Assembly (NCBI GenBank): GCA_004283055.1 | Contig: SHLP01000008.1 | Coordinates: 668-64,667 of the forward strand | Direction of reading: 5' to 3' | Length of the DNA: 64,000 bases | Source: Deltaproteobacteria bacterium | Lineage (GTDB): Bacteria; Myxococcota_A; Polyangia; Polyangiales; Houyiibacteriaceae | Shown: one piece after another, positions 12,412-64,000 of the stretch | How the letters are laid out: each line of letters opens with the position of its first letter | Numbering within the stretch: the stretch's first letter is position 1 | Made by a program: the position numbers and the translations under genes | Notes under the pieces: generated by a model | What the model saw: only the letters and a program-made list of their open reading frames with translations | What the model was told of the DNA's origin: nothing | Databases searched by the model: none

Positions 12412-12617
12412 GGGCGGATTTCTACCACGCAGCGAGGCTCGCGCCTGGCGGCATCACGGAGGTGCGGCCGCACAGCGCGTCCGAGCGAAGAACCATGGTT
12501 CCGCGCTCGCAAGTGCATGAAAATACGTAGTTGTTCGACAAACGTGATCTAAGTTTCGCCGGCAGGGTCCAGGCCCTTGCGCTTTTCGAGACCACATGGT
12601 CCTCTTTATGAACCACT

Positions 12618-27981: not shown

Positions 27982-28022
27982 CCCCCACCTCTCTAGGAAC
28001 TGTCAGGAGGATCGTCGAGCAG

Positions 28023-32093: not shown

Positions 32094-32414
32094 CTAGTCC
32101 AGGATCAGCTTGATCAGCGCGTTGAGGGTCTGATGACCTTCCACGGCGTGGCGAAGGGGAAGGGCGCCGTTGACCTCGTACGTGTTGCGGCGCCCTTCGC
32201 GTGTGCGCGAGACGTATCCGGCGGCCTCGAGCTCGGAGACGATGCGCTGCACGGCGCGCTCGGTGATTCCAACCTTCTCGGCGACGTCGCGCATGCGTGC
32301 CTCGGGGTCTTGAACCAAGCAGAGCAGGACATGCGAGTGGTTCGTCAGAAATGTCCACGCGGCCTCGGGCGCCCGATCCTTGGTTTTCGTCTTCGCCACT
32401 CGGAAACCCTTCAT
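32094..32414 (-). CDS. small winged-helix transcriptional regulator (106 aa), paralogue of 44275..44574
   Basis: AAWTFLTNHSHVLLCLVQDPEARMRDVAEKVGITERAVQRIVSELEAAGYVSRTREGRRNTYEV is an HTH followed by a wing. First gene of the kefG-kefC-type operon. Confidence 0.7.
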   Translation of the reverse strand: MKGFRVAKTKTKDRAPEAAWTFLTNHSHVLLCLVQDPEARMRDVAEKVGITERAVQRIVSELEAAGYVSRTREGRRNTYEVNGALPLRHAVEGHQTLNALIKLILD

Positions 32415-41333: not shown

Positions 41334-42812
41334 CTACGCATTCGCAATCGCCTCCGCGGTTCGTACGCCGCCCAGCGCGACGGCTAGTGTGCTCTGGCCG
41401 AGCAGGACCGAGTCGCCCACGAGATAGAGGCCGGGCGCAGCCTGCCGTGGCCAAAGCGCCCGAGGTCGGTAGTGCTTCCATCCAACACGTCTTGGCACCC
41501 CGCCCACGTAACCCAAATGCCGTCCAGTGAATCGAGCGAACGTCCGAGGGCTTGCCGTCATTTGGAATCTCGCATGGTCGAGAAGCTCGGGCGCGCGCCG
41601 TCTGATCGTCTCTCGCATTCGGTCTTGAATGTCCGCGATGTAGGTGCCCTGTTCCTCCGCACCGAGGGCGCGGAGCCTTTTCATCGGAACGTGCGTGGAA
41701 ACCGTTGCGGTTCGCTGTCCTGCCGGAGCCCGCTCGTGCTCGTCGGCTGCGCTGATCGAACAAAATACGTGGTTGCCTTCGAGGAACGGCGCGTTCTCGT
41801 CATCGACGAGCTGCAAATGGTGCGCCGATGGTCCACTCAGGGCGTCGGAGTCGACGGCGAGGTAGAGCATGGCCGCTCCCCATCCAGACTCCACGGCCGC
41901 CTCGACATCCTGAGTCGCGCCGTTCATCTCTGGTCCGGCCATTGTCGACAGCGATTGCGGCAGGACATTGGCGACGACGGTTTGCGCTCGGAGCTCCCCG
42001 CTTCGGGTGTCGACGCGCCAGGTTCCGGCTTCGCGTCTAAGGCCGCGGACCCGGTTGGCGAGCGACACTCTGCCGCCCGCGCGGTCGATCGCCGCGGTCA
42101 GCGCCCAGGCCAGGCTCCCAATGCCTCCGTGCACGTGGCCGGTGCCGCGAAAGAAGTAGTCGACCGCGGCCATCGCAAAAGGCGCTTCGGCCTCGGTCGA
42201 GCTCGCCTGCACGGTGATTTGGCTGACTGCGTCCAAGTAGACGCGGAGTGGGGCCCAGTCTCTCAGGCCATGACTCGACACGACTTCGGAAAGCGGTCGC
42301 CCCATCCACTGAACGACAGGCGCGTACGACAACGACCGGCCGAGATGCCGCAAGACGGCCGTGGCGCTCAGGGGCGGAAGGAGGGCAGGGTCCTCGAAGA
42401 GCTTCCATAGCGCGTTCGCAACGCCGCGCTGAGTCGCGAAGAACGAACGCAGCGCTTCTGGATTCGCGCCTGGGAGCTCCGCGAACCGCCGAACGAACGC
42501 GTCGGGGTCTGGCGGAACGGCGAGCGACCATTGCCCGGTTCGAAGCTCGACGAGCGGGTCGAGCGTCTCGAAGCGTACGCCCAGGTCCCACTTGTCATTC
42601 CAGTTCGAGAAAAGCTGACCGTCACCGAGTCCCGAAAACAACGTGGCCCCCGCTTCGAATTGATAGCCGCTTCGCGTAAAGGTACTCGCGCAGCCACCGG
42701 GATAGCGAAGCGTTTCGCACAAGACGACGTCGGCGCCGAGCTCGGCCAAGCGCAGAGCAGCTGCGAGGCCACCGAACCCAGCCCCAACCACGACGACGTC
42801 GGCCTTTTCCAT
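41334..42812 (-). CDS. phytoene desaturase (CrtI/CrtD) family FAD-dependent oxidoreductase
   Basis: DVVVVGAGFGGLAAALRLAELGADVVLCE...YPGGCASTF.R.GY.FEAGATL and the C-terminal block LYLVGDSV..GQS are typical of the CrtI family. Confidence 0.75.
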   Translation of the reverse strand: MEKADVVVVGAGFGGLAAALRLAELGADVVLCETLRYPGGCASTFTRSGYQFEAGATLFSGLGDGQLFSNWNDKWDLGVRFETLDPLVELRTGQWSLAVPPDPDAFVRRFAELPGANPEALRSFFATQRGVANALWKLFEDPALLPPLSATAVLRHLGRSLSYAPVVQWMGRPLSEVVSSHGLRDWAPLRVYLDAVSQITVQASSTEAEAPFAMAAVDYFFRGTGHVHGGIGSLAWALTAAIDRAGGRVSLANRVRGLRREAGTWRVDTRSGELRAQTVVANVLPQSLSTMAGPEMNGATQDVEAAVESGWGAAMLYLAVDSDALSGPSAHHLQLVDDENAPFLEGNHVFCSISAADEHERAPAGQRTATVSTHVPMKRLRALGAEEQGTYIADIQDRMRETIRRRAPELLDHARFQMTASPRTFARFTGRHLGYVGGVPRRVGWKHYRPRALWPRQAAPGLYLVGDSVLLGQSTLAVALGGVRTAEAIANA

Positions 42813-44274: not shown

Positions 44275-44574
44275 TCAGGACCGGACCACCCGCACGAGCT
44301 CGCCGACCGAGTGTTCGGACTCGATGGGGTGGCGAAGCGGAATTCCTTCGTTGACTTCGTAATGGGTGCGGCGTCCCTGACGGGTTCGAACGATCACACC
44401 GGCCTCTTCCAGCTCTCTCAAGATGCGCTGCACAGCGCGCTCGGTGACCCCCACGGCCTGCGCAATCTCCCGCACGCGCACGTTCGCGTCGCGTGCGATG
44501 CAGACCAGCACATGCCCGTGATTACTGAGAAAAGTCCACGCCGCGGGGGATTCTGAGCTACCATTTCTCTTCAT
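44275..44574 (-). CDS. small winged-helix transcriptional regulator (99 aa), paralogue of 32094..32414
   Basis: AAWTFLSNHGHVLVCIARDANVRVREIAQAVGVTERAVQRILRELEEAGVIVRTRQGRRTHYEV aligns without gaps to the 32.1-kb regulator. Confidence 0.7.
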   Translation of the reverse strand: MKRNGSSESPAAWTFLSNHGHVLVCIARDANVRVREIAQAVGVTERAVQRILRELEEAGVIVRTRQGRRTHYEVNEGIPLRHPIESEHSVGELVRVVRS

Positions 44575-51454: not shown

Positions 51455-52081
51455 GTGGAGCGGCTCGAGCGAGTCGAGGCCGTCGCGCTCGCCGCTTCAG
51501 TGGCAGCGTTTTGCGTGGCGATGGGTCTGCGCGAAGTCCTCAACATCTGGATCGGAACCGGCGCCGCCGCGCTGACCGCCTTGCTTGCGCTGTGGTTCGG
51601 CGCGCGTCCTGTGCTTCGATCCAACTTTCGGTCGCCCGCTGCGAAGAATCTGCTCGTCGGGCTTTCCGTCGGGGTACTGATGTCGATCGCGACCTGGTGG
51701 CTGTATCCCATCAGCGTGTCACTATTCCCGCCGATTCAAACCGAGGTCGAGACGCTCTACGCCCTGCTTCGTCAAGCTCCGGGGCCGGTTCGTGCCTTCC
51801 CCGTGCTCCTCTTGGTGGTTGCGGCGGAAGAGCTCGTCTGGCGCGGCGTTGCGATCGATCTCTTCTCGAAATCGCTCGGCCCCTGGCGCGCGATGGTGGT
51901 CTCGGCTCTTCTGTATGTTCTTCCGCAGGTCGCGCTGCGGTCGCCCTTGCTCATCATCGTCGCTCTGTGCTGCGGCCTCCTGTGGGGAGCTTTGCGGGTA
52001 CAAACCAAGGGCCTCGCCGCGCCGTTGGTTGCTCACCTGGTCTGGAACAATCTGGTGTTCGTCTGGCACCCCGTGGCCTGA
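51455..52081 (+). CDS. CPBP-family intramembrane glutamic endopeptidase (CAAX protease-like)
   Basis: Polytopic. Motif 1 is AAEELVWRG and motif 3 is VAHLVWNN. The GTG start immediately abuts the preceding stop. Confidence 0.75.
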   Translation: MERLERVEAVALAASVAAFCVAMGLREVLNIWIGTGAAALTALLALWFGARPVLRSNFRSPAAKNLLVGLSVGVLMSIATWWLYPISVSLFPPIQTEVETLYALLRQAPGPVRAFPVLLLVVAAEELVWRGVAIDLFSKSLGPWRAMVVSALLYVLPQVALRSPLLIIVALCCGLLWGALRVQTKGLAAPLVAHLVWNNLVFVWHPVA

Positions 52082-52099
52082 GAGGCGCGGCAGCGGTTC

Positions 52100-53320
52100 C
52101 TAGGTGATTGTGAATGACGGCTCTTCTCCGCGGAGGATACGGGTCAGGTCGCCCCGAACCACTCGATTTCCAACCTCCGAGACAAGCTGGCTTGCACCGG
52201 GTACGCGGCGGCGAATCCATTCGAATGGCGCGACCGCTGCGCGAATCGGATAGACCGAGTACTGCCAGAGATCGTTGGGGATGCCGAGGTCGTCTGCGAT
52301 CTCTGGGCCGTTGAATGCGCGCGCGAGCCCGTTGTGGATCCGACTCACCGCAAGCGCGACGACGGGGGGTGCCTTCCCGTTCGCGTTCTGCCCCGGCACC
52401 TTCAGAAGCTGCTCGGTCAAGGCGCGCGAATCGTCGTCGGGCCCGGGCTGTACCAGCCGAAGAAGATCGGCGAGGCGCCGAGTCTTCCCTTCGCTTCCGA
52501 GCTGCTCGAGCAGCCACGGGTCGACGCCGCTCAAGTGTCCACAGTATCGCCACAACGCGAGAATGGCTTCTCGCTCCTCCGCAGTGAGGTAAAAACCGAG
52601 ACGCTGCGCACCGTCCATCATGAGGAGCGAAAACTCCAACAGAGTCCCAAACATGTCGGCCTGGTTGATCGGCAGTCCCCACAGATCGGTGCGCCACCTG
52701 CCCGAGTCCAAGCAAGCGCGCCGCACGTGTGAATGGATCAAACTCACGCGCAGTGAGATCTCCCTGCCCGGGCGTCCAGGTCGAAGACCGTCGACCTGCG
52801 TGGCCTCACTAACGAAGCGCGCCGTCTCGGCGAGCCGCCGCTGAGGGCGGCCGATGAGCTCCCCGGTAAACGCCAGCGGTTTGACGGCTGCGCTCGAGTG
52901 ATACCCGTTGATGAGAGACCACGCGCTGAGGACGATCATGCCGAGGACTCCGAATCGCTGGTAGGCAAGCGCTCCGCTGCGGATCTGATCAAAGTCGACC
53001 CAGGCTGGAAGCGCATCGGCGCGCTCGAAGAATGCTCTGAGCTCTAATGAAGCTTCCGGAACCGCTGAAATGCCGTCGCGAAGAGCGCGTTCGAACTGGG
53101 ACTGGGCCCACTCGCCGTGGCGTTCGATCCATCGAACGAGCGCATCGGACAGCGGGTCTCCAGCGAGGTAAAAGCCTGCGTAGCGATCGGAATCGTCTCC
53201 GAAGCGCCGCCGGGCTTCCTCCCTGTTTTGATACCGATTTGGGTAGTCGGACTCGTTCATGGGCACGGTCAACCTAAGGCTCGGAGAGACATGCGGCCAG
53301 GTCCGGGCCGGCAGGCTCAT
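52100..53320 (-). CDS. DUF2236 / MpaB-family oxygenase domain protein
   Basis: About 400 aa. The pattern LRVSLIHSHVRR ... WG.PINQ.DM..TL..F resembles the DUF2236 (MpaB / rubber-oxygenase-like) family. ATGA overlap with the upstream DUF1295 gene. Confidence 0.7.
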   Translation of the reverse strand: MSLPARTWPHVSPSLRLTVPMNESDYPNRYQNREEARRRFGDDSDRYAGFYLAGDPLSDALVRWIERHGEWAQSQFERALRDGISAVPEASLELRAFFERADALPAWVDFDQIRSGALAYQRFGVLGMIVLSAWSLINGYHSSAAVKPLAFTGELIGRPQRRLAETARFVSEATQVDGLRPGRPGREISLRVSLIHSHVRRACLDSGRWRTDLWGLPINQADMFGTLLEFSLLMMDGAQRLGFYLTAEEREAILALWRYCGHLSGVDPWLLEQLGSEGKTRRLADLLRLVQPGPDDDSRALTEQLLKVPGQNANGKAPPVVALAVSRIHNGLARAFNGPEIADDLGIPNDLWQYSVYPIRAAVAPFEWIRRRVPGASQLVSEVGNRVVRGDLTRILRGEEPSFTIT

Positions 53321-54204
53321 TGCCGAGGTGGGCGGGGAATCAGCACCGGCGTCTGGTCCTTGTACCGGCGATAGCCTTCTTCATCGCCCCATCGTTCATC
53401 GGACCGCTTCTCGAGGAGCGGAATGCCGCTTACGCGTGTGAGCAACACGATCACGAAGATTGGAGAGATCATCGTGGCCCATTGCCAGCCAACGAGCGTC
53501 GAGGCTGCGATCAGAGCCACTCCAAACCAAAGGACGATTTCGCCGAAATAGTTCGGGTGCCGTGACCAGGCCCAGAGCCCGGTGTCAACGTACCGCCCCG
53601 GGTTCGCCGCGCGAAACTCGCTTTTCTGAAGGTCGGCGATGACTTCAATCGCAAAGCCGGTCGCCCAGACCACAAGGCCGATTGCGTCGAGCAGGCCGAA
53701 CGGTGACGGCTTCACCGTCGTGATCGCGGCAAGCGCCGCGCAAAGCGTCAAAAACACCCAAAAGCCTTGAAGGGTCCAGGCGATCAGAAACCGCGAGGCG
53801 CTCGGCTTGATTTCGTCGAAGCGGGGATCGGAGCCCGCATTTTGGATGCGCCGGAATAGAAAGCTACCGAGGCGCGAGGCCCAAATGAAAACCAAAAGCG
53901 CGAGGAGGATGGAGCGGCCATCGTTCGGGCGGGAAGCGAAGAGAGCAAAACCCGTGACCAGCATGTACGTCAGGCTGCCCACGAGATCGTAGTAGTGCTC
54001 GGTCTGTTTCAAGTAAGCCGGCACAAATGCAAGCCACTGCACGCCGAACGCGATCGCAGCGCACGAGAAGAGGATCGAGATACCGCCCGTTTGTGCGCCG
54101 CCATGCCCCCCGGCCCAGGCTACGACGGCAGCGACCGTCACCGCGCCCGAGATCACCCCCGCTGCAAGCGCAACTCGTTGAAATCCCATGAGTCCTTGGG
54201 CCAT
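53317..54204 (-). CDS. DUF1295 membrane protein (steroid 5-alpha-reductase / ICMT-like fold)
   Basis: YYDLVGSLTY, FIWASRLGSFLFRR, DPRFD and GLWAWSRHPNYFGEI..W.G are DUF1295 hallmarks. The ATG at complement(54202-54204) was chosen, and the longer track ORF (to 54393) was discarded. Confidence 0.8.
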   Translation of the reverse strand: MAQGLMGFQRVALAAGVISGAVTVAAVVAWAGGHGGAQTGGISILFSCAAIAFGVQWLAFVPAYLKQTEHYYDLVGSLTYMLVTGFALFASRPNDGRSILLALLVFIWASRLGSFLFRRIQNAGSDPRFDEIKPSASRFLIAWTLQGFWVFLTLCAALAAITTVKPSPFGLLDAIGLVVWATGFAIEVIADLQKSEFRAANPGRYVDTGLWAWSRHPNYFGEIVLWFGVALIAASTLVGWQWATMISPIFVIVLLTRVSGIPLLEKRSDERWGDEEGYRRYKDQTPVLIPRPPRQ

Positions 54205-54411
54205 AGCAGCAGAGGGTGCCGTTTGTCGAACGTCCCCCGAGACGGGCAGGGGACACTCTGGTGGGCGCCCGCGTCCGTCGCGGTTACCGCATCCGGAAGG
54301 GGCACACGGGAAGCTGACGGCGAGCATGGAGTCGGCTACGATCCTCGCAGCAGGCGGGTATTCGAGCTTTCGCAAAGAAATGCAGCGGTTCATGGAGTCC
54401 AGGAGTCGAAA

Positions 54412-54876
54412 ATGGCGAGACGCACAGTTCAGACATTCGTTTTCGCGCTGGTAGCCGTCGCATGGACCGTACCCGCGACCGCCGACGAAGAAACGGCGAG
54501 TCCTCCTGCGGTCCTAACGGTCGACGTTACGAACATACCAAACGAAAAAGGACAGATCGGCTGCTCGCTGTACTCGAAGGAAGACGGTTTTCCCTCCAAG
54601 CCCGACAAAGCCGATGCCAAGGTGTTCGTCAAGTCCAAGGCCGGGAAGGCGAGCTGCGTCTTCAAAGGACTCGAGCCAGGGAAGTACGCGGTCTCCGTCA
54701 TGCACGACGAGGACAAGAACGGAGAGCTCAAAACCAGCATGGTTGGGCGCCCAAAGGAATGGTGGGGCGTCTCGAACAACGTCCCGCCGGAGCGCTTCGG
54801 CCCTCCGAAGTACGAGGCTGCCCTGTTTTCGTACACTGGCAATCCCAAGACGATTAAGGTTAGGCTCCGGATCTAG
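54412..54876 (+). CDS. DUF2141 secreted protein
   Basis: The ATG at 54412 gives a signal peptide (MARRTVQTFVFALVAVAWTVPATA). NEKGQIGCSLY...FP......A........G.A.C.F..L.PG.YAVSV.HDEDKNGEL resembles DUF2141. Confidence 0.7.
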   Translation: MARRTVQTFVFALVAVAWTVPATADEETASPPAVLTVDVTNIPNEKGQIGCSLYSKEDGFPSKPDKADAKVFVKSKAGKASCVFKGLEPGKYAVSVMHDEDKNGELKTSMVGRPKEWWGVSNNVPPERFGPPKYEAALFSYTGNPKTIKVRLRI

Positions 54877-54906
54877 CCGCGGGTCTTCCGCGCCCCGGAC
54901 CCCTCA

Positions 54907-56457
54907 GTGATGACCTACGATCGGCGATACTTAGCGGACGACGTCCGCGCAGGCATCGTGGTGTTTCTCGTGGCCTTGCCTCTTTGCCTCGGGATCGCAC
55001 TCGCGTCCGGCGCGCCCCTTTTCAGCGGCCTCATCGCGGGGATTGCGGGCGGGCTCGTGGTCACGGTCGTCAGTAAATCGAGACACGGGGTGAGCGGGCC
55101 GGCGGCGGGTCTCGCGGTGATGGTAGCCGCGGGCATCGAAACGCTCGGGTTCGAGGCCTATCTGCTGGCGGTGATCATCTGTGGGGTAGTCCAGCTCGTC
55201 GCCGCCTTTCTCAAGGCCGGCGTCATCGCGCACTACTTCCCCTCGAGCGTCATCAAGGGGATGCTGGCCGGCATCGGGATCATCCTCATCCTGAAGCAGA
55301 TCCCGCACGCGTTCGGATACGACCAGTCTTGGGAGGGCGAGCTCGAGTTCTTTCAAAGCGACGGCCGCAACACGTTCAGCGAAATCGGCTATGCGCTGCG
55401 GGCGCTGAGCCCGGGCGCCATCATCGTGACCGCGTTGTCGCTGGGCGTTCTGCTTCTCTGGCAGGGTCCAAGATTCAAGCGCACCCGCCTTGCAAAGGCG
55501 ATCCCCGCACCGCTCCTCGTCGTGCTGCTTGGCGTAGGGCTCAATCGCGCCTTCGGTGCGTTCCGGCCCGACCTATCCATTTCCGCCGAGCACCTCGTCC
55601 GCGTTCCGCTCTCAGCCTCACTCGGGGAGTTCTTCTCGAATTTCGTACGGCCCGACTTCTCGCAGATCACGAACCCCGAGATCTACGTCGTGGGACTGAC
55701 CCTGGCGCTCATCGCGAGCATCGAGACTCTGCTGTCGGTCGAGGCCACCGACAATCTCGACCCAGAGAAGCGCGTCACCCCCACCAACCAAGAGCTCAAA
55801 GCGCAGGGTCTTGGCAACATCGTCTCTGGCCTACTCGGCGGCATTCCGGTTACCCAGGTCATCGTGCGAAGCACGGCAAACATCGAATCTGGCGGCAAGA
55901 CGCGCCTCGCTTCGTTCATTCACGGCGTTCTGCTTCTGATCTGCGTAGCTACGATTCCAAATCTACTCAATGAAATCCCGCTCGCGAGTCTGGCCGCCAT
56001 TCTGTTGGTGATCGGGTACAAGCTCGCCCGCGTGTCCCTGTTCAAGGCGATGTGGAAAGAGGGGTTCTGGCAGTTCGTCCCCTTTGTTGTGACGGTCGTA
56101 GGGCTGGTCTTCACGGACTTGCTCACAGGCATCATGCTCGGCATGGCCGTCGCGTTTTTCGAGATCCTGATCTACAACTATCAGCTCAGCTTTTACCGGG
56201 AGGAGACGAGCGAGGGGTGCTTCACGATTCGTCTCACCGAGCACATGACTTTCCTCAACAAAGCGTCGCTCAAGCGTCTCCTTCGGGAAGTTCCGCCGGA
56301 CTCTGCCGTGACCATCGACATGTCGACGACCCGGATTCTCGATCACGACGTGCGCGAGGTCATCGAGGACTTCGCGACGCACGCGGAGGCTGACGGGATC
56401 GACGTCACCGTGCTCGGCTCGACGCGGCCGACGATCGCGCTCACCGACAGCTCCTGA
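54907..56457 (+). CDS. SulP-family anion transporter with a C-terminal STAS domain
   Basis: DVRAGIVVFLVALPLCLGIALASGAP is the typical SulP N-terminus. About 11 TM segments follow, and the C-terminal 110 aa look STAS-like. Confidence 0.88.
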   Translation: MMTYDRRYLADDVRAGIVVFLVALPLCLGIALASGAPLFSGLIAGIAGGLVVTVVSKSRHGVSGPAAGLAVMVAAGIETLGFEAYLLAVIICGVVQLVAAFLKAGVIAHYFPSSVIKGMLAGIGIILILKQIPHAFGYDQSWEGELEFFQSDGRNTFSEIGYALRALSPGAIIVTALSLGVLLLWQGPRFKRTRLAKAIPAPLLVVLLGVGLNRAFGAFRPDLSISAEHLVRVPLSASLGEFFSNFVRPDFSQITNPEIYVVGLTLALIASIETLLSVEATDNLDPEKRVTPTNQELKAQGLGNIVSGLLGGIPVTQVIVRSTANIESGGKTRLASFIHGVLLLICVATIPNLLNEIPLASLAAILLVIGYKLARVSLFKAMWKEGFWQFVPFVVTVVGLVFTDLLTGIMLGMAVAFFEILIYNYQLSFYREETSEGCFTIRLTEHMTFLNKASLKRLLREVPPDSAVTIDMSTTRILDHDVREVIEDFATHAEADGIDVTVLGSTRPTIALTDSS

Positions 56458-56465
56458 CCCCGATC

Positions 56466-57470
56466 CTACGCCGCGTCCGCGCGGACCTCTTCGACCGCTT
56501 CGCCCAAGGCCTCCCGGAGCGGCGTGTATTGCATCCCCAGCTCACGTTTGGCGCGGGTCCCATCGAAGATCAGCGAGCCTGCGGCCGTTGTCTTGAGGAT
56601 GTCGACAGGGATCGCGGGACGCGTCTTCGTCCAGCGTGCCCATTGCTCGAGCAGCCGCGCGATGGGGATGAGCAAGCGTTCGGGAAGATTGATTCGAGGC
56701 ACCGGCACGTTGGCGAGGTCGCCTATGATCGAGAAGTAGTCTCTCGTAGTGGCGCGCTCGGTGCCGATCAGGTAGCGCCGCCCGGTGCTGTCCGGGCTCA
56801 GAAGCGCGCGGACGATGGCTTCCGCGGCGTCGCCGACATGAAGATACGTATAGGTCGTGTCGGCCCCGACGAGCACGGGAAGCCTGCGTTCAACGGCGCG
56901 GCGCACCTCCATGGTCGGCCGTGGGTCGCCGGCTCCGATCACGGCCGCCAAGTGAACGACAGTAAGCGGAAGACCTCGTTCGGCGTGCATGCGCCAGCCG
57001 ATTTGATCGGCGTGGTGCTTGCTTCTGGCGTAGTGCGACGGATGCGGTCCCGGAGCGGTCTCCTCGTCGAAGGGGATATCTGCCGGTATGCCGAACGCGA
57101 GTGGAGTGCTCACTTGAACCACTTTGTGCGCTTGGGCGCGCAGCGCGGCTCGAAACACGTTCTGGGCCCCCTGGGTGTTTAGCTCGTCGTACAGCTCGGG
57201 GCGCAGGCTCCAGAAGTCCCGATACCCTGCGAGATTGATGATACCCCAGGCCCCCTTCACCAGCGGAGTCAGCGACGCAGGCTCGCAGATGTCGCCTCGC
57301 ACACAGCTCACCCGCTCGTCCAAGGCGCCGAGCTCGCTTGCGTCCTTCTCCGAGCGCACGAGGCATCGAAGCACGAGGTCTGGCTCCTCGAGCAAACGCT
57401 CCAGGACGTACCCTCCGACGAAGCCAGTTGCGCCGGTGACCGCGATGGTTCGGATCGAGGCTTCCACCAC
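56466..57470 (-). CDS. NAD-dependent epimerase/dehydratase-family (extended SDR) oxidoreductase
   Basis: IAVTGATGFVGGYVLERLL glycine motif, and YARSK matches YxxxK. Confidence 0.8.
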   Translation of the reverse strand: MVEASIRTIAVTGATGFVGGYVLERLLEEPDLVLRCLVRSEKDASELGALDERVSCVRGDICEPASLTPLVKGAWGIINLAGYRDFWSLRPELYDELNTQGAQNVFRAALRAQAHKVVQVSTPLAFGIPADIPFDEETAPGPHPSHYARSKHHADQIGWRMHAERGLPLTVVHLAAVIGAGDPRPTMEVRRAVERRLPVLVGADTTYTYLHVGDAAEAIVRALLSPDSTGRRYLIGTERATTRDYFSIIGDLANVPVPRINLPERLLIPIARLLEQWARWTKTRPAIPVDILKTTAAGSLIFDGTRAKRELGMQYTPLREALGEAVEEVRADAA

Positions 57471-57547
57471 CTGAGTCTAGAGTCTCGGAAAAAATCGCCA
57501 AGCCGAGGCTTGCTCGCCTGGACGATCGCTCTAACGTTGGCACGTCA

Positions 57548-58627
57548 ATGGAGCTGAAAGCGTCTACGAGAGGTCCAAGCGCGAAAAGCCTATCGACGAT
57601 CGGGATCGCCCTGCGTATGGCAGAGGCGGGCTTGTTTCCAGAGCTGGTCCTCCGAGCCGGCACACGCCATCTGCTCCAGAGGCGACTTCGGGAGAGCGTC
57701 AGCGGTTCGGTCGAGGCGCGAGAGCGGGAGCAGACCGCGCTCATGGATAGCTTAGCCGGCGGTCCTATCGCGATTGATGTCGCAGCGGCGAACGAGCAGC
57801 ACTACGAGGTCCCTGCACCTTTCTTCGAGCTCGTTCTCGGCCCACGGCTCAAATACAGCTGTTGCCATTGGGACAACCGCACGCCAAACCTCGCCGCCGC
57901 GGAAGACGCCATGCTGGAGCTCACCGCACGGCGCGCGAAAATCCAAGACGGTATGCGGATACTCGACCTCGGCTGCGGCTGGGGGTCGTTCACGCTCTGG
58001 GCAGCGGAGAAGTTTCCGAACTCCAACATTTTGGCGGTGTCGAACTCCCACATCCAGCGCGCATTCATCGAAGGGCGTGCCACCGAGCGGGCGCTCACCA
58101 ACGTTCGCGTGGAGACCACAGACATCAACGATTTTCAACCGGACGAACCGTTCGACAGAGTCGTGTCGATCGAGATGATGGAGCATGTGCGTAACCATCG
58201 TGCGCTCTTCGAGCGAATCGCAGCCTGGCTTGCCGATGACGGCCTGGCCTTTTCTCACATCTTCTGCCATCGGTCGCACGCGTATACCTACGAGCACCGC
58301 GACCCGAGCGACTGGATGGCCAAGAACTTCTTCACGGGCGGGATGATGCCCTCGGAGGGAATGTTTCAGCGGTACCAGGACGATCTAGTCTTGCGCGAGC
58401 AGTGGCGAGTGAATGGAAGGCACTACCACCGCACCTGTGACGCCTGGCTCGAACGCCTCGACCAGAATCGAGACACCGCTCTGCGGATTCTTGCCGACGG
58501 ATACGGCTCGGATGCCTCGCGCTGGTTCCACCGCTGGAGGTTGTTTTTCATCGCCTGTTCGGAGCTTTTCGAGTACCGGAATGGTGCGGAATGGTTCGTG
58601 TCGCACTATTTATGGGAAAAGCGTTGA
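57548..58627 (+). CDS. cyclopropane-fatty-acyl-phospholipid synthase family SAM-dependent methyltransferase
   Basis: HYEVPAPFFELVLGPRLKYSCCHW ... MRILDLGCGWGSFTLWAAE (SAM motif I) ... DRVVSIEMMEHV are the family blocks of CFA/mycolic-acid synthase-type enzymes. Confidence 0.85.
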   Translation: MELKASTRGPSAKSLSTIGIALRMAEAGLFPELVLRAGTRHLLQRRLRESVSGSVEAREREQTALMDSLAGGPIAIDVAAANEQHYEVPAPFFELVLGPRLKYSCCHWDNRTPNLAAAEDAMLELTARRAKIQDGMRILDLGCGWGSFTLWAAEKFPNSNILAVSNSHIQRAFIEGRATERALTNVRVETTDINDFQPDEPFDRVVSIEMMEHVRNHRALFERIAAWLADDGLAFSHIFCHRSHAYTYEHRDPSDWMAKNFFTGGMMPSEGMFQRYQDDLVLREQWRVNGRHYHRTCDAWLERLDQNRDTALRILADGYGSDASRWFHRWRLFFIACSELFEYRNGAEWFVSHYLWEKR

Positions 58628-58629
58628 GC

Positions 58630-59424
58630 TCACGGCGTGATCTCTTTTCCGCGGAAATCGAAGATCTTGCCGCTGTCGTCGGGCTCGAGTGAATCGATCA
58701 CTCGGAGAAGCGCGGCGACGGATTTGCTCGGGGGCAGCAGCTGCGTCTCAGGTACGTTTCGTTGGAACGGCTTCGAAAGGCCGGTGTCTACGGTGCCAGG
58801 ATGAAGCCCGACGACGATTGCATGCGGGGCGACTCTCGCGAGCTCGATCGAAATGTTTTTGGTGAACATGTTCTGAGCGGCTTTCGAACCGCGATACGCG
58901 TACCATCCTCCCAGGCGGTTGTCCGAAATGCTTCCGACGCGCGCGGAGAGGCTCGCGAAAACCGACCGCTTGCGGTGTCGAAGGAAGTCGTGGAAGTGCT
59001 TTGCAATCAGCAGGGGACCAAAAGCGTTGACCTCGAACGCGTGACGCAGCGGCTCGGGTTCAACCTGGGCAAGCTTCTTTTCCGGGCCGAAGCCCGGTCC
59101 ATGAAGGATGCCTGCAACGTTGAGGATCAGCTCCAACTGCTCTGTCTCGCCCGCTACGGCTTCCGCCGCGGCAGCGATGGACGTCTCCTCTCGAACGTCG
59201 AGCGCGATCGCCCGAAGACGTCCGGGATGCTGAGCTGCGAGCTCCTGAAGCTCAGCGGCGTCGTCCGGTCGCCGGCATGTCGCGATGACGCGACCGCCGG
59301 GCTGCCTCTCCAGCAGCTGTCGAACGAGCTCCAAGCCGATACCGCGGCTCGCTCCTTGGACCAACGAGGTGCCACCGAGCTGCATCACTCGCCGCATTGT
59401 TCGATACGGGCGCGGCTCTGCCAA
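58630..59424 (-). CDS. classical SDR-family oxidoreductase
   Basis: VQGASRGIGLELVRQLL (TGxxxGIG-type motif), NVAG and YRGSK (YxxxK). The start is uncertain because there are several in-frame Met codons. Confidence 0.8.
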   Translation of the reverse strand: MAEPRPYRTMRRVMQLGGTSLVQGASRGIGLELVRQLLERQPGGRVIATCRRPDDAAELQELAAQHPGRLRAIALDVREETSIAAAAEAVAGETEQLELILNVAGILHGPGFGPEKKLAQVEPEPLRHAFEVNAFGPLLIAKHFHDFLRHRKRSVFASLSARVGSISDNRLGGWYAYRGSKAAQNMFTKNISIELARVAPHAIVVGLHPGTVDTGLSKPFQRNVPETQLLPPSKSVAALLRVIDSLEPDDSGKIFDFRGKEITP

Positions 59425-59528
59425 GACGCGACGCCCCTGTCGGGCGGCTCAAAGACGCAGCGCAGCGATTTGAGTCCAAGGCCCCGCAAAGGGAAGAAAT
59501 TCCGACTGTCCATCATTTGTCCACCACT

Positions 59529-59560
59529 TTGCTTGACATAACTTAGACAGATCCTAAAAG
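59529..59560 (+). promoter_or_regulatory. candidate promoter TTGACA-N16-TAAAAG overlapped by two 11-bp-spaced nAnnTnnACAn-like repeats
   Basis: TTGACA at 59533-59538 and TAAAAG at 59555-59560. GGAGG at 59568-59572 lies 6 nt before the ATG at 59579. Repeat 59540-59550 (aAacTtagACAg register) matches the pattern fully. Repeat 59529-59539 matches T and ACA but not the first A. Confidence 0.35.
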
Positions 59561-59578
59561 CGTGACTGGAGGTATCAC

Positions 59579-59806
59579 ATGAACCAGTCATCCACGGGGT
59601 CAGCCCAGAAGGTCAGTTTCCGCAGCGCGCTCGCCGTCCTCGGCTCCGCCAAGCTGCTCTTCTTTCTCGCCGCAGGCCTCTCCTACCTTTTGTCGATCTG
59701 GCTCTGGTTTTCAGGCGATCGCGAGCGCGGCCTCTTCGTTGGGCTCTGGGTTCCGTCGATTCTGTCAGCCGGTGCCCTCCTGCTGAGCCGGGGTCACCAT
59801 GAATGA
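59579..59806 (+). CDS. small membrane protein (75 aa, 2 TM)
   Basis: Preceded by a GGAGG Shine-Dalgarno. Two hydrophobic helices (LLFFLAAGLSYLLSIWLWF; LFVGLWVPSILSAGALLL). First gene of a tightly packed 4-gene operon. Confidence 0.5.
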   Translation: MNQSSTGSAQKVSFRSALAVLGSAKLLFFLAAGLSYLLSIWLWFSGDRERGLFVGLWVPSILSAGALLLSRGHHE

Positions 59807-59975
59807 TCTCGACCTTCTGATCGCTGGTGCGATGGTCTCGTTTCTCTCGGTGGCCGGCGCCTACATCGCGGTCCGTCACCGCGCGAACGAAGAGCCCGTG
59901 CGCTCGTTCGCGCCGCCCGCCGAGGGCCCTTCTTCCTCCTCGGTGCACGCTCAAGATCGTCCAACGCCAAGGTAG
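59799..59975 (+). CDS. small membrane protein (58 aa, 1 TM), not in the supplied ORF track
   Basis: Own translation: MNDLDLLIAGAMVSFLSVAGAYIAVRHRANEEPVRSFAPPAEGPSSSSVHAQDRPTPR. The start overlaps the preceding stop by 8 nt, and the stop lies 4 nt before the next start. It is below the 60-aa cut-off of the track. Confidence 0.35.
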   Translation: MNDLDLLIAGAMVSFLSVAGAYIAVRHRANEEPVRSFAPPAEGPSSSSVHAQDRPTPR

Positions 59976-59979
59976 CTCG

Positions 59980-60771
59980 ATGTCCGCGTATGAGATGCAC
60001 GTGGCGAAGCTCTTCCGAGGCGCCCCCCAGCCCAGAAGCGAGTGGAGCGGCGTACTCGACCTAGTGACCCCGGGCCTCGACCTTCTCGCGCCGCAGGAGC
60101 TGTTTCAGCAGTCGCTCGAGCTCGTCAGCAATGCTGCGAATACACGCCGCTACGCCTCGGTGCGCGACACAGCACAGGCCACGCTTCGAAGCGCCCGGGT
60201 TGACATTCTCGTGGAGGAGCAGCGAAGGAAGATCCGACTCGTCCCTTCGTCGGATTTGAAACGCACGCAGCGCCGTTGGCTGGGACAGCTCGTTCTGCAG
60301 CTCTATTTCACGCAGCTCTTCCAAGGCGACACCGCCGTGATCGACCTCTGGCCGAGCCGACTCGGCATCAACGCCGCAGGGGATGCGATTTGGAACCCTC
60401 GACCGTTGTATGTTCGCTGGGACGCAGAATTCATTGGCGCCGTCCGAGACGTGTACGCGGGGTTTTTCATAGACGACCAAGCGCAGTTCCAGGCTGGCTT
60501 GCGCAAGCTTGGCGTAGAGGCCGCGGGTGGCCTCGCGCTGCGCCACTTAGGGGAGGGGACCCAGAGGGGCGTTCGCTTCAGCACCGCCCACCTGGGCGCC
60601 ACGCTGCGTGAGATCTCCGACCTGAACCTGAACCTGAGCCGTGCCGGTACACTCAGCCGAAACTTCGTCGCCTTTGGTCTCTACCTACTCTCGCTCCACG
60701 AGTTGCTCGAATCGCTCGACTGCTCGTTTGACGTACGCAGCGCCTTCATGCGCAGCTATCGAAGATTTTGA
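59980..60771 (+). CDS. uncharacterised protein, paralogue B of the 49706..50482 family
   Basis: The internal ATG at 59980 gives MSAYEMHVAKLF... The C-terminal ~190 aa are collinear with paralogue A. The upstream part of track ORF 59827..60771 overlaps the small ORFs in another frame. Confidence 0.65.
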   Translation: MSAYEMHVAKLFRGAPQPRSEWSGVLDLVTPGLDLLAPQELFQQSLELVSNAANTRRYASVRDTAQATLRSARVDILVEEQRRKIRLVPSSDLKRTQRRWLGQLVLQLYFTQLFQGDTAVIDLWPSRLGINAAGDAIWNPRPLYVRWDAEFIGAVRDVYAGFFIDDQAQFQAGLRKLGVEAAGGLALRHLGEGTQRGVRFSTAHLGATLREISDLNLNLSRAGTLSRNFVAFGLYLLSLHELLESLDCSFDVRSAFMRSYRRF

Positions 60772-60772
60772 C

Positions 60773-61426
60773 ATGCGCTGGGCTGGAGCGGGCCTCGGGT
60801 TGATTCTTTTGCTGGCCGCACTCGGGGCCATCGTGCTCGGAGGTGGGACAGTGGCGTACGAAAGCCCGACATACTCGGTCAGCCAAACTCTGGGCAACGT
60901 CGAAATCCGTGAGTATCGCCCTTACTTGGTCGCCGAAACGGTAGTCGGCGGCACTCCAGACACCGCCGGGAATGAGGGCTTTCGGATTCTCGCGAAGTAC
61001 ATCTTCGGCAGCAACCGCGGTACGCGCAAGATCGCAATGACGGCCCCCGTTAGCCAAAAGAAGGTCGGGGGGACGAAAATCGCCATGACCTCGCCGGTCA
61101 CACAGGAGAAAGTGGGCGATGAGTTCGTGGTTCAGTTCATGATGCCCTCCGAATACACAATCGAAGAGCTGCCCGAGCCCGACGACACGCGGATCAGTTT
61201 CCGACAAGTCCCGGCCCGCACCTTTGCGGCGGTTAAATATTCAGGCTCGTGGTCGCAGGGGAACTATCAGAAACACCTGGCACTGCTGCTCGATGAGTTG
61301 CGATCGGCAGGGTACGAGGCGATCGGCGAACCGATCTGGGCGCGCTACGATGCGCCGTTCAAACCTTGGTTCTTGAGGCGGAACGAAATCCTCACTGCAT
61401 TTGAGGCGCCGCCCGGGGAGCGCTGA
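60773..61426 (+). CDS. SOUL haem-binding-family protein with an N-terminal membrane anchor/signal
   Basis: The ATG at 60773 lies 1 nt after the preceding stop. YESPTYSV......VEIREY.PYLVAET.V ... GFRILAKYIFG.N......IAMTAPV ... matches the SOUL/HEBP family pattern. Confidence 0.75.
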   Translation: MRWAGAGLGLILLLAALGAIVLGGGTVAYESPTYSVSQTLGNVEIREYRPYLVAETVVGGTPDTAGNEGFRILAKYIFGSNRGTRKIAMTAPVSQKKVGGTKIAMTSPVTQEKVGDEFVVQFMMPSEYTIEELPEPDDTRISFRQVPARTFAAVKYSGSWSQGNYQKHLALLLDELRSAGYEAIGEPIWARYDAPFKPWFLRRNEILTAFEAPPGER

Positions 61427-63047
61427 GCGGTTTGGGCCGAAGCAAGCCGCGCGGTGCGACCGTGAAGATCGTCTCCTCGCGCAGACCGAGCTCCCGGAAA
61501 ACAGCGTTGGCACAAAGCAGCCCAGATACAAAGGCGGCTTCCATGTGGGTCATCGGGTAGGGCAGACGCACCCAATCGCCGGCCATGAGCAAGCCTTGAA
61601 TGGGCGACTCCGCCGTGGGCCGGAGCGCATGTTGTCCCGGAGCAAACGCTGGGAAATCGCGGCGGACCTGCAGGACTTCATTCGAAATGCACAGACCCTG
61701 TAGCTCGGGAAAGTAGTGATAAAGCTCTTCCAGGAAAACCGCGCGAAGTTCCTCGTCCCCATCGATGTCGCGCGGCAGCGCGTAGCTATGAAGCTCCAAG
61801 ACGGCGCCGCCGTTTACTTCGACCCAGGCCGACGCTTCGTCGGTGACGCGGTGGTAGAGCGTCACCGAGTCCAGCACGCGCTTGCGATCCACGTTGATGA
61901 AGGTGGGCAGGCCGGACCGAACGTCTCGATTGACCCAAATTCGCCAAACCGCGTAACCGTGCGAAGTGCGCAGCGCTAGCATCTTGCCAACGAAATCGGG
62001 GTCCGCCTCCTGCAGCCATTCGGAGCCTTCGATAATTGCCTGCATCCCCGGAATGTCCGCGGCCAGCACGACCCAGTCGTATTCCTCGTGTCCAATCTGA
62101 AAACGTTTGCTCTCGCCCGTTTCGATGCGGGACACGGGGGAGCCCATTCGAAGGTCGACCCCGTGCTCCTCGAGATGCGCGCGAATCGGAGCCAGGAGCG
62201 TCGTTTCGTAGTCGCCGGCCGGGTAGTCGTAGATGAGGCCGTGATCATGGCTGAGATAGTAGAAGTGAAATGCGCGAAGCACGTCTGCCGTCGAGAGGTC
62301 AGCCTCGTCGGAAAAGAAGGCGCGGGCAAACGTTCGAAACGAAAGCCGTAGCTCCGGCGGGAGATCGGCCTCGTCGCAGTATCGGCCGAAGGGAATCGAA
62401 TCGAATGCTTCATAGGTGCGTTCCATGTCGAAGCGAACGAACGAATCGAGCCGCTCGCGCGTCTGCTTGCGAATGACATCGCGCCAGCGATAAAAGCCGC
62501 GGCGACCGAGGTCTACGATGTTGAGCGCAGGGACCGTGTCTACGTCTCCGTAGCTCTGCGGATGAAGGTCGGAATGAAGGATCAGGTAGTCTTCAATTGC
62601 GCTGAAATCTTTGCGGATGCCCAGGCGGTCCAGGAACTCGTTCAAGTTGTAGTACTGCCGAAAGAACGCGTGAAACCCATGCTCGACAGTCTGCTCGGTG
62701 TCCCCCACCGGGACCGTCCAGGCGCCAATCTTTCCGCCGAGATACGCGTTGCGCTCGAAAAGAGTCACTTCGACGCCGCGCTCGGCAAGCGAGGAAGCGG
62801 CCCCGATGCCAGCGAGTCCGCCTCCAAGAACGGCCACCCTCGGCGTGCCGCCGCGGAGATCCTTCGGCAATGCCCGATCGCTCGGCTCGACTTCGTGGCG
62901 ATATCCGCCCAGCTTGCGCTCGACGAGTCGACCGAGGGCTCGCTTCGGCCGACCACCCCGCATGGCGAGCCAAATCAACAGGGCCACGAGGGCTGCCGCC
63001 CACCACCAAATGCTCACTTCGACACCCTCTTTTCCTGTACCATGCAA
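61392..63047 (-). CDS. FAD-dependent oxidoreductase, carotenoid desaturase-like (possibly CrtU/isorenieratene-synthase-like)
   Basis: N-terminal TM helix, the RVAVLGGGLAGIGAASSLAERGVEVTLFERNAYLGGK Rossmann motif, and an HGFHAFFRQYYNL block that I associate with CrtU-type enzymes. The track start is a TTG at 63047, and GTG at complement(63015-63017) is an alternative. Confidence 0.7.
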   Translation of the reverse strand: MHGTGKEGVEVSIWWWAAALVALLIWLAMRGGRPKRALGRLVERKLGGYRHEVEPSDRALPKDLRGGTPRVAVLGGGLAGIGAASSLAERGVEVTLFERNAYLGGKIGAWTVPVGDTEQTVEHGFHAFFRQYYNLNEFLDRLGIRKDFSAIEDYLILHSDLHPQSYGDVDTVPALNIVDLGRRGFYRWRDVIRKQTRERLDSFVRFDMERTYEAFDSIPFGRYCDEADLPPELRLSFRTFARAFFSDEADLSTADVLRAFHFYYLSHDHGLIYDYPAGDYETTLLAPIRAHLEEHGVDLRMGSPVSRIETGESKRFQIGHEEYDWVVLAADIPGMQAIIEGSEWLQEADPDFVGKMLALRTSHGYAVWRIWVNRDVRSGLPTFINVDRKRVLDSVTLYHRVTDEASAWVEVNGGAVLELHSYALPRDIDGDEELRAVFLEELYHYFPELQGLCISNEVLQVRRDFPAFAPGQHALRPTAESPIQGLLMAGDWVRLPYPMTHMEAAFVSGLLCANAVFRELGLREETIFTVAPRGLLRPKPLSAPRAAPQMQ

Positions 63048-63075
63048 GCAATTCGGAGCAATGCATGGGCCTTCG

Positions 63076-63108
63076 CTGTCTAGATGGTGTCAAGGTCTTG
63101 TCAGGTCC
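63076..63108. promoter_or_regulatory. three tandem 11-bp direct repeats (cTGTctAgaTg / gTGTcaAggTc / tTGTcaggtcc), CarH/LitR-operator-like
   Basis: Read directly from the sequence. On the minus strand the first two match nAnnTnnACAn perfectly, and the third keeps only ACA. They lie in the 99-nt divergent gap between the CrtU-like and lycopene cyclase genes. Confidence 0.45.
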
Positions 63109-63126
63109 AGGGGAAGGCCATATAGG
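63098..63126 (+). promoter_or_regulatory. candidate sigma70-type promoter TTGTCA-N17-TATAGG for the lycopene cyclase gene
   Basis: -35 at 63098-63103 (inside repeat 3) and -10 at 63121-63126. A GGGGAG Shine-Dalgarno at 63139-63144 precedes the ATG at 63147. Confidence 0.4.
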
Positions 63127-63146
63127 CCTAAAATGGCCGGGGAGCG

Positions 63147-64000
63147 ATGACCAACCTGCACGATCTCGCCGTGCTGGGGAGCGGGCCGGCTGCGCTGGCG
63201 GTCGCGTCGGCCTGCGTTCAACGAGGGGCGTCGGTCCTTCTCATCGCCCCCGAGCCGCACGCGGCTTGGCTTCCAAACTACTGCCTTTGGGCCGACGAAG
63301 TGCCCGTCGCGCTTCAAGATCTGACCGAGCAGTTCTGGCCCCGAGCAGCCGTGGCCACCACGCTTGCTCGTCGGAGCCTCGACCGTTCGTACGTCAAGCT
63401 CGACACCTTCGCGCTCCAGCAGCATTTCTGGGACGCGTTCCGCGGGGGGTCCGTCGGCGTGGTACCGAAGCGCGCGGTGCGTTTGGAGCACCAGCCCAGC
63501 TCCACCACGGTTCACACGGAGGACGGAACCGAGCACCGGGTCCGGGTGGTGATCGACGCATCGGGAGCAGGCACGCCCTTCGTGCGACGCGTTCACGCTC
63601 GGCCGCCGGCCTACCAAACCGCGTACGGCCTTCTCTTGGACGCGCCGCAGCACCGTTTCGATTCCTCGCAGTTGGTGCTCATGGATTTCCGACCCGGACC
63701 GACCGCCAGCCTGGAGCCGCCGTCCTTTTTGTACGTGCTCCCACTCGACGATGGTCGATTGTTCCTCGAGGAGACCTCGCTCGCGCGCCGACCAGCGATG
63801 TCGATGGGCACGCTGCGTGAGCGCCTGGAAACGCGCTTGACGTCGCTCGGCCTTGCTCGGAGCAGGCGTATCGGGCAAGAGCGATGCTCGATCGCGATGG
63901 GGCTAGGCTTGCCTGCACCTGTGCAATCTCTGGTCCCCTTCGGGGCTGCAGCGGGGATGGTGCATCCTGCGTCCGGCTACCTGATGGCCCATGTCCTGCG
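63147..64000 (+). CDS. lycopene cyclase family protein (CrtL/CrtY-type), 3' end beyond the window
   Basis: Own translation: MTNLHDLAVLGSGPAALAVASACVQRGASVLLIAPEP...LPNYCLWADEV ... FLYVLPLDDGRLFLEETSLA ... PFGAAAGMVHPASGY. These are the dinucleotide motif and the lycopene-cyclase conserved blocks. Not in the ORF track because no stop lies in the window. Confidence 0.8.
   Translation, partial: MTNLHDLAVLGSGPAALAVASACVQRGASVLLIAPEPHAAWLPNYCLWADEVPVALQDLTEQFWPRAAVATTLARRSLDRSYVKLDTFALQQHFWDAFRGGSVGVVPKRAVRLEHQPSSTTVHTEDGTEHRVRVVIDASGAGTPFVRRVHARPPAYQTAYGLLLDAPQHRFDSSQLVLMDFRPGPTASLEPPSFLYVLPLDDGRLFLEETSLARRPAMSMGTLRERLETRLTSLGLARSRRIGQERCSIAMGLGLPAPVQSLVPFGAAAGMVHPASGYLMAHVL

Follow-up and report, generated by a model that had tools for sequence, protein, structure and literature searches.

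Operators of the CarH family are composed of 11-bp direct repeats of the form nAnnTnnACAn or nnnnTnnACAn, each repeat accommodating one DNA-binding domain (PMC8156234, PMC9304148). The Thermus operator has three repeats in tandem, one of which covers the -35 element, the operator of Bacillus megaterium has four, and those of myxobacteria have three to five, pseudo-repeats included (PMC8156234, PMC9304148). A single site in a divergent intergenic region of Sorangium cellulosum has been proposed to control both of the promoters there (PMC8156234, PMC9304148). In the Myxococcales, CarH is separated from CarA by an intact Wx9EH motif and the lower-ligand histidine, and CarA is found in Cystobacterineae only (PMC9304148). 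CrtL-type cyclases occur in Nannocystineae (PMC9304148). Of two Sorangiineae with unlinked carH that were examined, S. amylolyticus had no site and L. luteola had one, upstream of carH only (PMC9304148). A first-pass annotation of the DNA described here, made from the sequence alone, had proposed a CarH/LitR-type operator over divergent carotenoid promoters; the Thermus consensus and the architecture of three repeats over a -35 element that it drew on are as published (PMC8156234, PMC9304148).

The divergent carotenoid genes

The window (the whole stretch of DNA that was analyzed, 64 kb in length) is identical to positions 1178-65177 of contig JAHHMP010000028.1 (68,953 bp; MAG GCA_018679225.1), from which the sequence outside the window was taken. 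The genes on either side of the predicted operator are:

61392..63017, minus strand, CrtU-like flavoprotein (plant-type PDS/isorenieratene-synthase-like), 541 aa, with an N-terminal membrane helix; monocistronic, divergent from crtL
63147..64000, plus strand, 5' part of a CrtL-type lycopene beta-cyclase (410 aa in full), first gene of the series crtL, crtI-family, crtB

The cyclase matches Pfam PF05834 (1e-56) and NCBIfam carotene-cycl (278 bits versus a cutoff of 209.5), and the 3,776 bp from the right edge of the window to the end of the contig complete crtL and continue with a crtI-family desaturase gene, crtB, a glyoxalase gene and a fragment of a CoA-transferase gene. The divergent gene encodes a protein of the amine-oxidase fold and family, of which the best solved relative is plant phytoene desaturase (5mog, 3e-19); none of the NCBIfam equivalogs reaches its cutoff with this protein, and many of its homologues in JGI are named isorenieratene synthase (CrtU). 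Three homologues of 728-739 aa with 47-49% identity (P0265, P0267, P0268) have a fused lycopene-cyclase domain (PF18916), a fusion that supports a functional tie of the flavoprotein to cyclization. Because of the annotation of the homologues and the gene fusion, "CrtU-like" is a fair label, its basis being these two kinds of evidence and not experiment. The first-pass annotation had recognized both flanking genes, in agreement with the domain matches and the homologue names, but had begun the crtU-like gene at TTG 63047; an exact-sequence look-up of the 541-aa product in public assemblies places the start at GTG 63017, which is preceded by GAGGG, so the intergenic region is 129 bp long.

Elsewhere in the window, a second flavoprotein with the amine-oxidase fold (492 aa) is encoded at 41334-42812 on the minus strand, unlinked to the carotenoid genes. 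Two winged-helix regulators of the MarR/HTH_24 type, each of about 100 aa and with similar domain matches, are encoded on the minus strand at 32094-32414 and 44275-44574; one adjoins a flavodoxin-like quinone reductase and a Na+/H+ exchanger, and the other is upstream of an ABC/HlyD/OEP efflux operon. A scan of the window with Rfam found no riboswitch or other RNA.

Tandem 11-bp repeats in the intergenic region

The plus strand at 63076-63108 reads CTGTCTAGATG GTGTCAAGGTC TTGTCAGGTCC, which constitutes three 11-bp repeats arranged head to tail. Their minus-strand sequences are:

63076..63086, minus strand, DR1, CATCTAGACAG, full nAnnTnnACAn, single-repeat score 13.2 bits
63087..63097, minus strand, DR2, GACCTTGACAC, full nAnnTnnACAn, 13.5 bits, containing TTGACA at 63093..63088
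63098..63108, minus strand, pseudo-repeat dr3, GGACCTGACAA, only ACA kept, 5.3 bits

Thus the array consists of tandem repeats in strict 11-bp phase, two of them full and one reduced to ACA, as expected of a CarH-type operator, and a re-reading of the sequence confirmed this composition as it had been described at the first pass. All repeats of the site are in a single orientation. The pattern TGTNNANNTNNTGTNNANNTNNTGT (13 bases) occurs once in the 64 kb when both strands are searched, and no match was found in any of 100 dinucleotide shuffles. With a position matrix derived from 87 repeats in 29 genomes other than the window's own, the site scores 32.0 bits, compared to a null maximum per 64 kb of 8.2 +/- 2.9 and a top value of 20.6 in 200 Markov-randomized runs; when the 129-bp intergenic region was shuffled 20,000 times, none of the shuffled sequences reached 32 bits and the maximum was 19.3. 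The array is thus far in excess of chance, by the pattern (0/100, 64 kb) as well as by the matrix (0/20,000, intergenic).

Conservation of the array in related Myxococcota

Species-representative genomes were scanned with the CrtU-like flavoprotein, which yielded 35 loci; the relatives among them are Polyangiales or Sandaracinaceae-like Myxococcota MAGs. In nearly all of the loci that retain the upstream region, the cyclase is again the divergent partner and the array is located between the two genes. An array is present at the same position in 26 of the 29 related Myxococcota loci with the upstream region retained, and the matrix score is at least 27 bits in 26. A regular expression for two repeats, in a count that omits the window's own genome (L001-L003), matches 17 of 28 related loci at the same place and on the same strand, with zero matches on the opposite strand. 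The two closer relatives, with 95% and 88% protein identity, also carry the array, which in the latter (L050, from MAG GCA_905148035.1) reads TTGTCTAGATG GTGTCGAGGTC TTGTCAAGAAC.

Alignment of the arrays in register revealed four 11-bp slots that are conserved across the clade. Slot 0 is cTTGTCAAGG, with 90-100% conservation per base over the first eight positions; slot -1 is TGTCnAGGT, slot -2 is GTCTAnAT, and slot -3 is weaker (GTnCA). Slot 0 contains TTGTCAA/TTGACAA in 24 of 29 loci, a near-palindrome that can be read as a -35 hexamer in either direction. Of the four slots, the three strong ones are present in the window, and the weaker fourth repeat that is frequent in relatives is not. 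When the three strong slots are pooled, the conserved columns are TGT (0.71, 0.94 and 0.95), A7 (0.93) and T10 (0.74), and these coincide with the positions that the CarH consensus specifies. The slot occupied by DR2 is TGGACA or TAGACA in relatives, as opposed to TTGACA in the window.

Predicted promoters of the two transcription units

Both the conserved -35-like TTGTCAA and the elements that resemble a -10 either overlap the repeats or adjoin them. Within dr3, two -35-like hexamers overlap, TTGTCA (63098-63103) on the plus strand for crtL and CTGACA (63103..63098) on the minus strand for the crtU-like gene. Downstream toward crtL are:

63121..63126, plus strand, predicted -10 element TATAGG of crtL-crtI-crtB, 17 nt past TTGTCA
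63139..63144, plus strand, Shine-Dalgarno sequence GGGGAG of crtL, with the ATG at 63147

All elements of this predicted plus-strand promoter, as well as GGGGAG and ATG, were found where the first-pass annotation had placed them, and an element [C/T]ATA[A/T/C][G/A] is kept at equal distance from TTGTCA in relatives. A strict sigma-70 scan of 62900-63300 called no promoter, TATAGG being passed over because its final T is absent; the assignments of both promoters are therefore predictions based on conservation only, as are the transcription start sites that they would specify, and the -10 elements are weak.

Toward the crtU-like gene, the minus strand of slot 0 offers TTGACA in 24 of 29 loci and CTGACA in the window. 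Located 22 bp downstream of slot 0 on this strand are positions 5-10 of slot -2, the slot occupied by DR1, which are TAGAC[A/G]-like in most relatives; TAGACA in DR1 (63082..63077) is a possible -10 element of the crtU-like gene, and the resulting geometry of -35, 16-nt spacer and -10 equals that at the second operator described below. If this geometry is right, the crtU-like promoter would be wholly within the repeats and the crtL promoter would share its -35 element, and consequently a single CarH oligomer would silence both. The minus-strand TTGACA that the first-pass annotation had pointed out in repeat 2 does exist at 63093..63088 but is species-specific, the clade-wide TTGACA being that of the third slot; it was rejected as the -35 element of the crtU-like gene because no -10 element follows 16-19 nt further on and because relatives do not conserve the hexamer.

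A second predicted operator near the SOUL operon

The only other notable match to the matrix in the window is at 59529-59561 (16 bits, a score reached by 4 of 20,000 local shuffles), in the intergenic region between a short-chain dehydrogenase (SDR) gene and orf75, where the plus strand reads CTGTCCATCAT TTGTCCACCAC t TTGCTTGACAT AACTTAGACAG ATCCTAAAAGC. The features of this region are:

58630..59385, minus strand, SDR gene, divergent from orf75
59506..59527, minus strand, left arm of the second operator, GTGGTGGACAA ATGATGGACAG, two TnnACA repeats toward the SDR gene, back-to-back with the right arm
59529..59561, plus strand, right arm of the second operator, full TnnACA repeats TTGCTTGACAT and AACTTAGACAG and pseudo-repeat ATCCTAAAAGC, toward orf75
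59533-59538 and 59555-59560, plus strand, TTGACA and TAAAAG with a 16-nt spacer, predicted promoter of the orf75-orf58-orf263-SOUL operon, inside the right arm
59579..61426, plus strand, orf75-orf58-orf263-SOUL operon (orf75, 59579-59806; orf58, 59799-59975; orf263, 59980-60771)
60773-61426, plus strand, SOUL haem-binding protein gene, last in the operon

This back-to-back architecture is kept, with both arms, in at least eight relatives (L004, L005, L006, L008, L016, L018, L033, L049). The region 59506-59561 is predicted to be a second, weaker, conserved CarH-type operator, with the SDR gene as its probable second target.

In some relatives a carH-like gene is found among the genes of this operon. 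In L018 it is inside the operon (12302-13222), in the order orf75-orf58-X-carH-SOUL, and in L015 (12258-13160) and L035 (11597-12499) it is directly beside the SOUL gene. Where L018 has carH, the window has orf263, which matches no family, and L049, the 95% relative, has a remnant of 30 aa. Judging from these gene orders, the mid-operon position before SOUL is an evolutionarily fluid slot, and carH appears to have entered and left the SOUL operon in the course of evolution.

The carotenoid divergon is adjoined at 51455-59385 by a series of genes of the kind that photo-oxidative or membrane-lipid stress islands typically contain, and their order is kept in relatives: the series includes an Rce1-like protease, an MpaB/Lcp-type oxygenase, DUF1295 and DUF2141 proteins, a SulP transporter, an NAD-dependent epimerase, a methyltransferase resembling cyclopropane-fatty-acid synthase, and the SDR. 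A DNA photolyase (PF00875 and PF03441) is encoded at 27969-29522 on the plus strand; because there is no 11-bp repeat array upstream of it, it is apparently outside the CarH regulon as the motif defines it.

Search for the regulator gene

No MerR or B12-binding gene was recognized among the ORFs of the window, tblastn with four CarH-like proteins found none, and a profile of 120 CarH-like proteins compared to all ORFs of at least 40 aa gave a best E-value in the window of 1.9, so that the absence of such a regulator from the 64 kb, as reported at the first pass, holds. A regular expression for the MerR signature identified no regulator in the window or the contig. The same annotation had guessed that carH might be just beyond the right edge; since there is no CarH homologue on the 68.9-kb contig, including the 3,776 bp to the right of the window with the five genes and gene parts listed above, nor in any conspecific fragment, this guess fails. 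The left flank, judged from conspecific contigs, likewise contains no regulator. Two protein searches with CarH were made, and the best 120 matches of each were listed. P0100, the sole match among those listed to bear the name "Deltaproteobacteria bacterium", was rejected as the carH of this MAG as it belongs to another (GCA_018679075.1), P0069 and P0059 were rejected as both derive from a metagenome assembly, and P0083 was set aside for want of a bin assignment; the second search, with P0100, returned no match attributable to this MAG among the matches listed.

CarH-like proteins of the clade

In five related loci (L007, L015, L018, L035, and L036 from Bacteroidetes), a gene for a MerR-domain protein is beside the flavoprotein gene. 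The four myxobacterial proteins (L007, L015, L018, L035), when aligned, all possess the RxWERRY motif, the Wx9EH motif and the cobalt-ligand histidine; the best NCBIfam match of the L007 and L015 proteins is CarH (1e-37 to 1e-41). Pfam MerR matches are on record for the CarH-like regulators of relatives. The RxWERRY motif has the variants IRVWERRY in the L015/P0100 type and LRMWEKRY in L007, and Wx9EH is intact as W-KRGDLRIVH-EH (L007) and W-HQGQLKISH-EH (L015), in alignment with the motif of Thermus CarH. Proteins of the L007 type fully match the classic B12 motif (EDHELG-x41-SVT-x26-GG). The L015/P0100 type, which with 205 clusters at E<=1e-60 is the dominant CarH-like subfamily of the clade and is without a PF02310 match, has HxHxxG-x41-SxA-x26-G[I/V] instead of the classic D/ExHxxG-x41-SxT/V-x22-27-GG, with the histidine and the spacing kept. 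The proteins with a degenerate motif include P0100, P0061 and those of L015, L018 and L035. As most CarH-like proteins of the clade have a degenerate Rossmann B12 motif, dependence on B12 is not guaranteed. The best solved relatives of P0061 are Thermus CarH/LitR (5c8d and 3whp, 1e-28).

The motif was found at the regulator's own promoter in relatives only, where it recurs upstream of CarH-like genes with four different gene neighborhoods. In L007, the 190 bp before carH contain two arrays (37 and 22.6 bits), a repeat pair is located 100 bp upstream of carH in L018, and unlinked fasciclin-carH operons (L044, L045, L046, L047) have repeat pairs of 20-25 bits in their promoter regions, compared to a chance rate for such pairs at the same threshold of about 0.4 per randomized 64 kb. 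The most informative relative is MAG GCA_905148035.1, a near relative with a syntenic crtB-crtI-crtL/crtU-like locus, an 88% identical CrtU-like protein and the operator kept (L050), in which the carH-like gene for P0061 is unlinked, on contig L044, with an array of its own.

Upstream of the fasciclin-carH operons of L044 (approximately 415-450) and L047 (approximately 3045-3080), two tandem copies of CTAGAAC[G/A]TGTTCCA are found beside the CarH-type repeats, each containing the palindrome GAAC-N2-GTTC; they look like the site of another regulator. A short distance downstream of the flavoprotein gene, tblastn detected stretches of 25-26 aa in L009 (11604-11681) and L016 (21516-21590) that are 69-84% identical to the C-terminal end of CarH of the L007 type. 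In L016 the match is truncated where the locus ends; in L009 it may represent a diverged or decayed carH.

Alternative explanations of the repeats

Direct repeats with a TGTCA core are also known from the Pho box. In E. coli it is CTGTCATAWAWCTGTCAY, with pairs of CTGTCAT repeats, A at position 6 and T at position 7, and 4-bp AT-rich spacers. A Pho box or another site of the OmpR/PhoB family that replaces the -35 element, where the regulator would activate crtL, resembles CTGTCTAGATGGTGTCAAGG in its core (TGTCA), its period (11 bp), its orientation toward the -10 element and its position at -35. In the matrix, though, A occupies position 7 (0.93) and position 6 varies, the spacers are rich in G, the repeats number three and are not paired, it is carotenoid genes that flank the site, the motif is found again before carH in four contexts, and there are no pho or pst genes in the annotated part of the window (about 36 kb), all of which makes this reading highly improbable. 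Equally improbable is the notion that a dedicated repressor does not exist and that the repeats are nothing but overlapping TTGACA/TTGTCA-like hexamers belonging to a pair of divergent promoters: each repeat does contain a -35-like hexamer (TAGACA, TTGACA, CTGACA), and TTGTCAA reads as a -35 element on both strands, but promoters do not need three to four of these in strict 11-bp phase with conserved A7 and T10, and the same arrays are found at unrelated promoters beside carH genes.

The most serious variant among the rivals retains a CarH-like protein but deprives it of B12 and light sensing, the site being bound either by a CarA-like protein or by a constitutive repressor that needs an antirepressor. 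It draws on the properties of the dominant subfamily of the clade, which is without a PF02310 match and departs from the Rossmann motif at three of four positions. Opposed to it are the intact Wx9EH motif and lower-ligand histidine, which are the criteria that separate CarH from CarA (PMC9304148), and the end-to-end alignment of the clade proteins with Thermus CarH, so that it is considered unlikely, if less so than the two readings above. An operator of the CarA type in particular was rejected, as the repeats of the site are in one orientation and all of the regulators found have an intact Wx9EH.

Proposed mechanism and significance

The preferred interpretation, to which a probability of about 0.82 is assigned, is that 63076-63108 is a CarH-family operator for light-relieved repression of the divergent carotenoid promoters. 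This reading, in essence that of the first-pass annotation, is strengthened because the motif is as published and the array is conserved in place across the clade, and also because the motif is upstream of CarH-like genes in relatives and the CrtU annotation and fusions concern the flanking gene; the target genes are carotenoid genes, the classic CarH regulon. The degenerate third repeat, the absent fourth repeat, the weak -10 elements and the lack of a strict sigma-70 call are counted against it, as are the failure to find a CarH homologue on the contig or in conspecific fragments and the degenerate Rossmann motif of most CarH-like proteins in the clade. The regulator of this genome is predicted to be a CarH protein, in which family a MerR-type DNA-binding domain is joined to an adenosylcobalamin-binding light sensor, and its gene would be elsewhere in the genome. 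In the dark, the adenosylcobalamin-loaded oligomer (a tetramer in Thermus thermophilus) would contact each repeat with one DNA-binding domain, all from the same face of the helix, with a footprint of approximately 63076-63108 that would cover the shared -35 element (63098-63103) of two face-to-face divergent promoters and probably span the whole crtU-like promoter, and RNA polymerase would be kept off both crtL-crtI-crtB and the crtU-like gene. In the light, photolysis of the cofactor would cause the oligomer to disassemble and to lose DNA binding, and the carotenoid genes would be transcribed. Through the second operator (59506-59561), the SDR gene and the orf75-SOUL operon may be under common control with the carotenoid genes.

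A further, speculative proposal, rated as improbable, is that in these uncultured Polyangiales-like Myxococcota the CarH subfamily with the degenerate B12 motif controls a photo-oxidative-stress island and not carotenoid genes alone. The island would comprise the crtU-like gene, crtL-crtI-crtB, the SOUL haem-binding protein, two tiny membrane proteins and the SDR, with the cyclopropane-synthase-like methyltransferase as a possible further member, and its control would employ two architectures, a one-way tandem array common to face-to-face promoters and a back-to-back 2+3 array. If this is true, the change in the cofactor pocket might imply that another corrinoid is bound, that the photochemistry differs or that control does not depend on light.

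The CarH operator is a well-known kind of switch, and the understanding of its mechanism is unchanged. The modest twists at this locus are a regulator that is apparently unlinked, a -35 element that two face-to-face promoters would have in common and a predicted second operator of back-to-back form, to which the variant CarH subfamily of the clade can be added. With the predicted operator, the regulon of the B12 photoreceptor CarH would reach a lineage of uncultured myxobacteria, probably from marine or sediment habitats, whose regulator gene appears not to be linked to the target genes, a situation for which the published survey has few or no sites; it points to CarH targets other than carotenoid genes, and it provides a phylogenetically footprinted operator for asking how one CarH oligomer silences two overlapping divergent promoters. 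For annotation, the 33-bp matrix can define CarH regulons in Myxococcota MAGs.

Comparison with known systems

The site resembles the E. coli Pho box (PhoB) in its TGTCA-core direct repeats, their 11-bp spacing and their location at the -35 position, and differs from it in conserved positions, spacer composition, repeat number, gene context and association with carH. With the CarH/CarA operator at Pcrt (PB) of Myxococcus xanthus, it has in common the 11-bp repeats, a TTGACA inside one of them and a light-released repressor, as predicted here (PMC9304148). The M. xanthus operator is about 55 bp long, with five repeats (DR1-dr2-DR3-DR4-dr5), and is also read by the B12-independent CarA via inverted repeats (PMC9304148), whereas no CarA-type protein or palindrome was seen at this locus. 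As in the carH/crtB operator of Thermus thermophilus CarH (LitR), a divergent intergenic site is predicted to control carotenoid genes (PMC8156234, PMC9304148); unlike in Thermus, the regulator gene is outside the divergon and the contig, the third repeat is a pseudo-repeat, and the two face-to-face promoters appear to share a -35 region. The sites Pcrt-Sc1/Sc2 of S. cellulosum and Pcrt-Ho of Haliangium ochraceum (Perez-Castano et al. 2022; PMC9304148) are likewise myxobacterial and outside the Cystobacterineae. There, carH adjoins the carotenoid genes (PMC9304148), whereas none is on the contig of the window, and the gene pair of the window is crtL and the crtU-like gene in place of crtI-carH or crtE-crtD. 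Their likeness to the array described here is in the three or four 11-bp repeats that mix full repeats with pseudo-repeats, and in the divergent region where one site is proposed to serve both promoters (PMC9304148).
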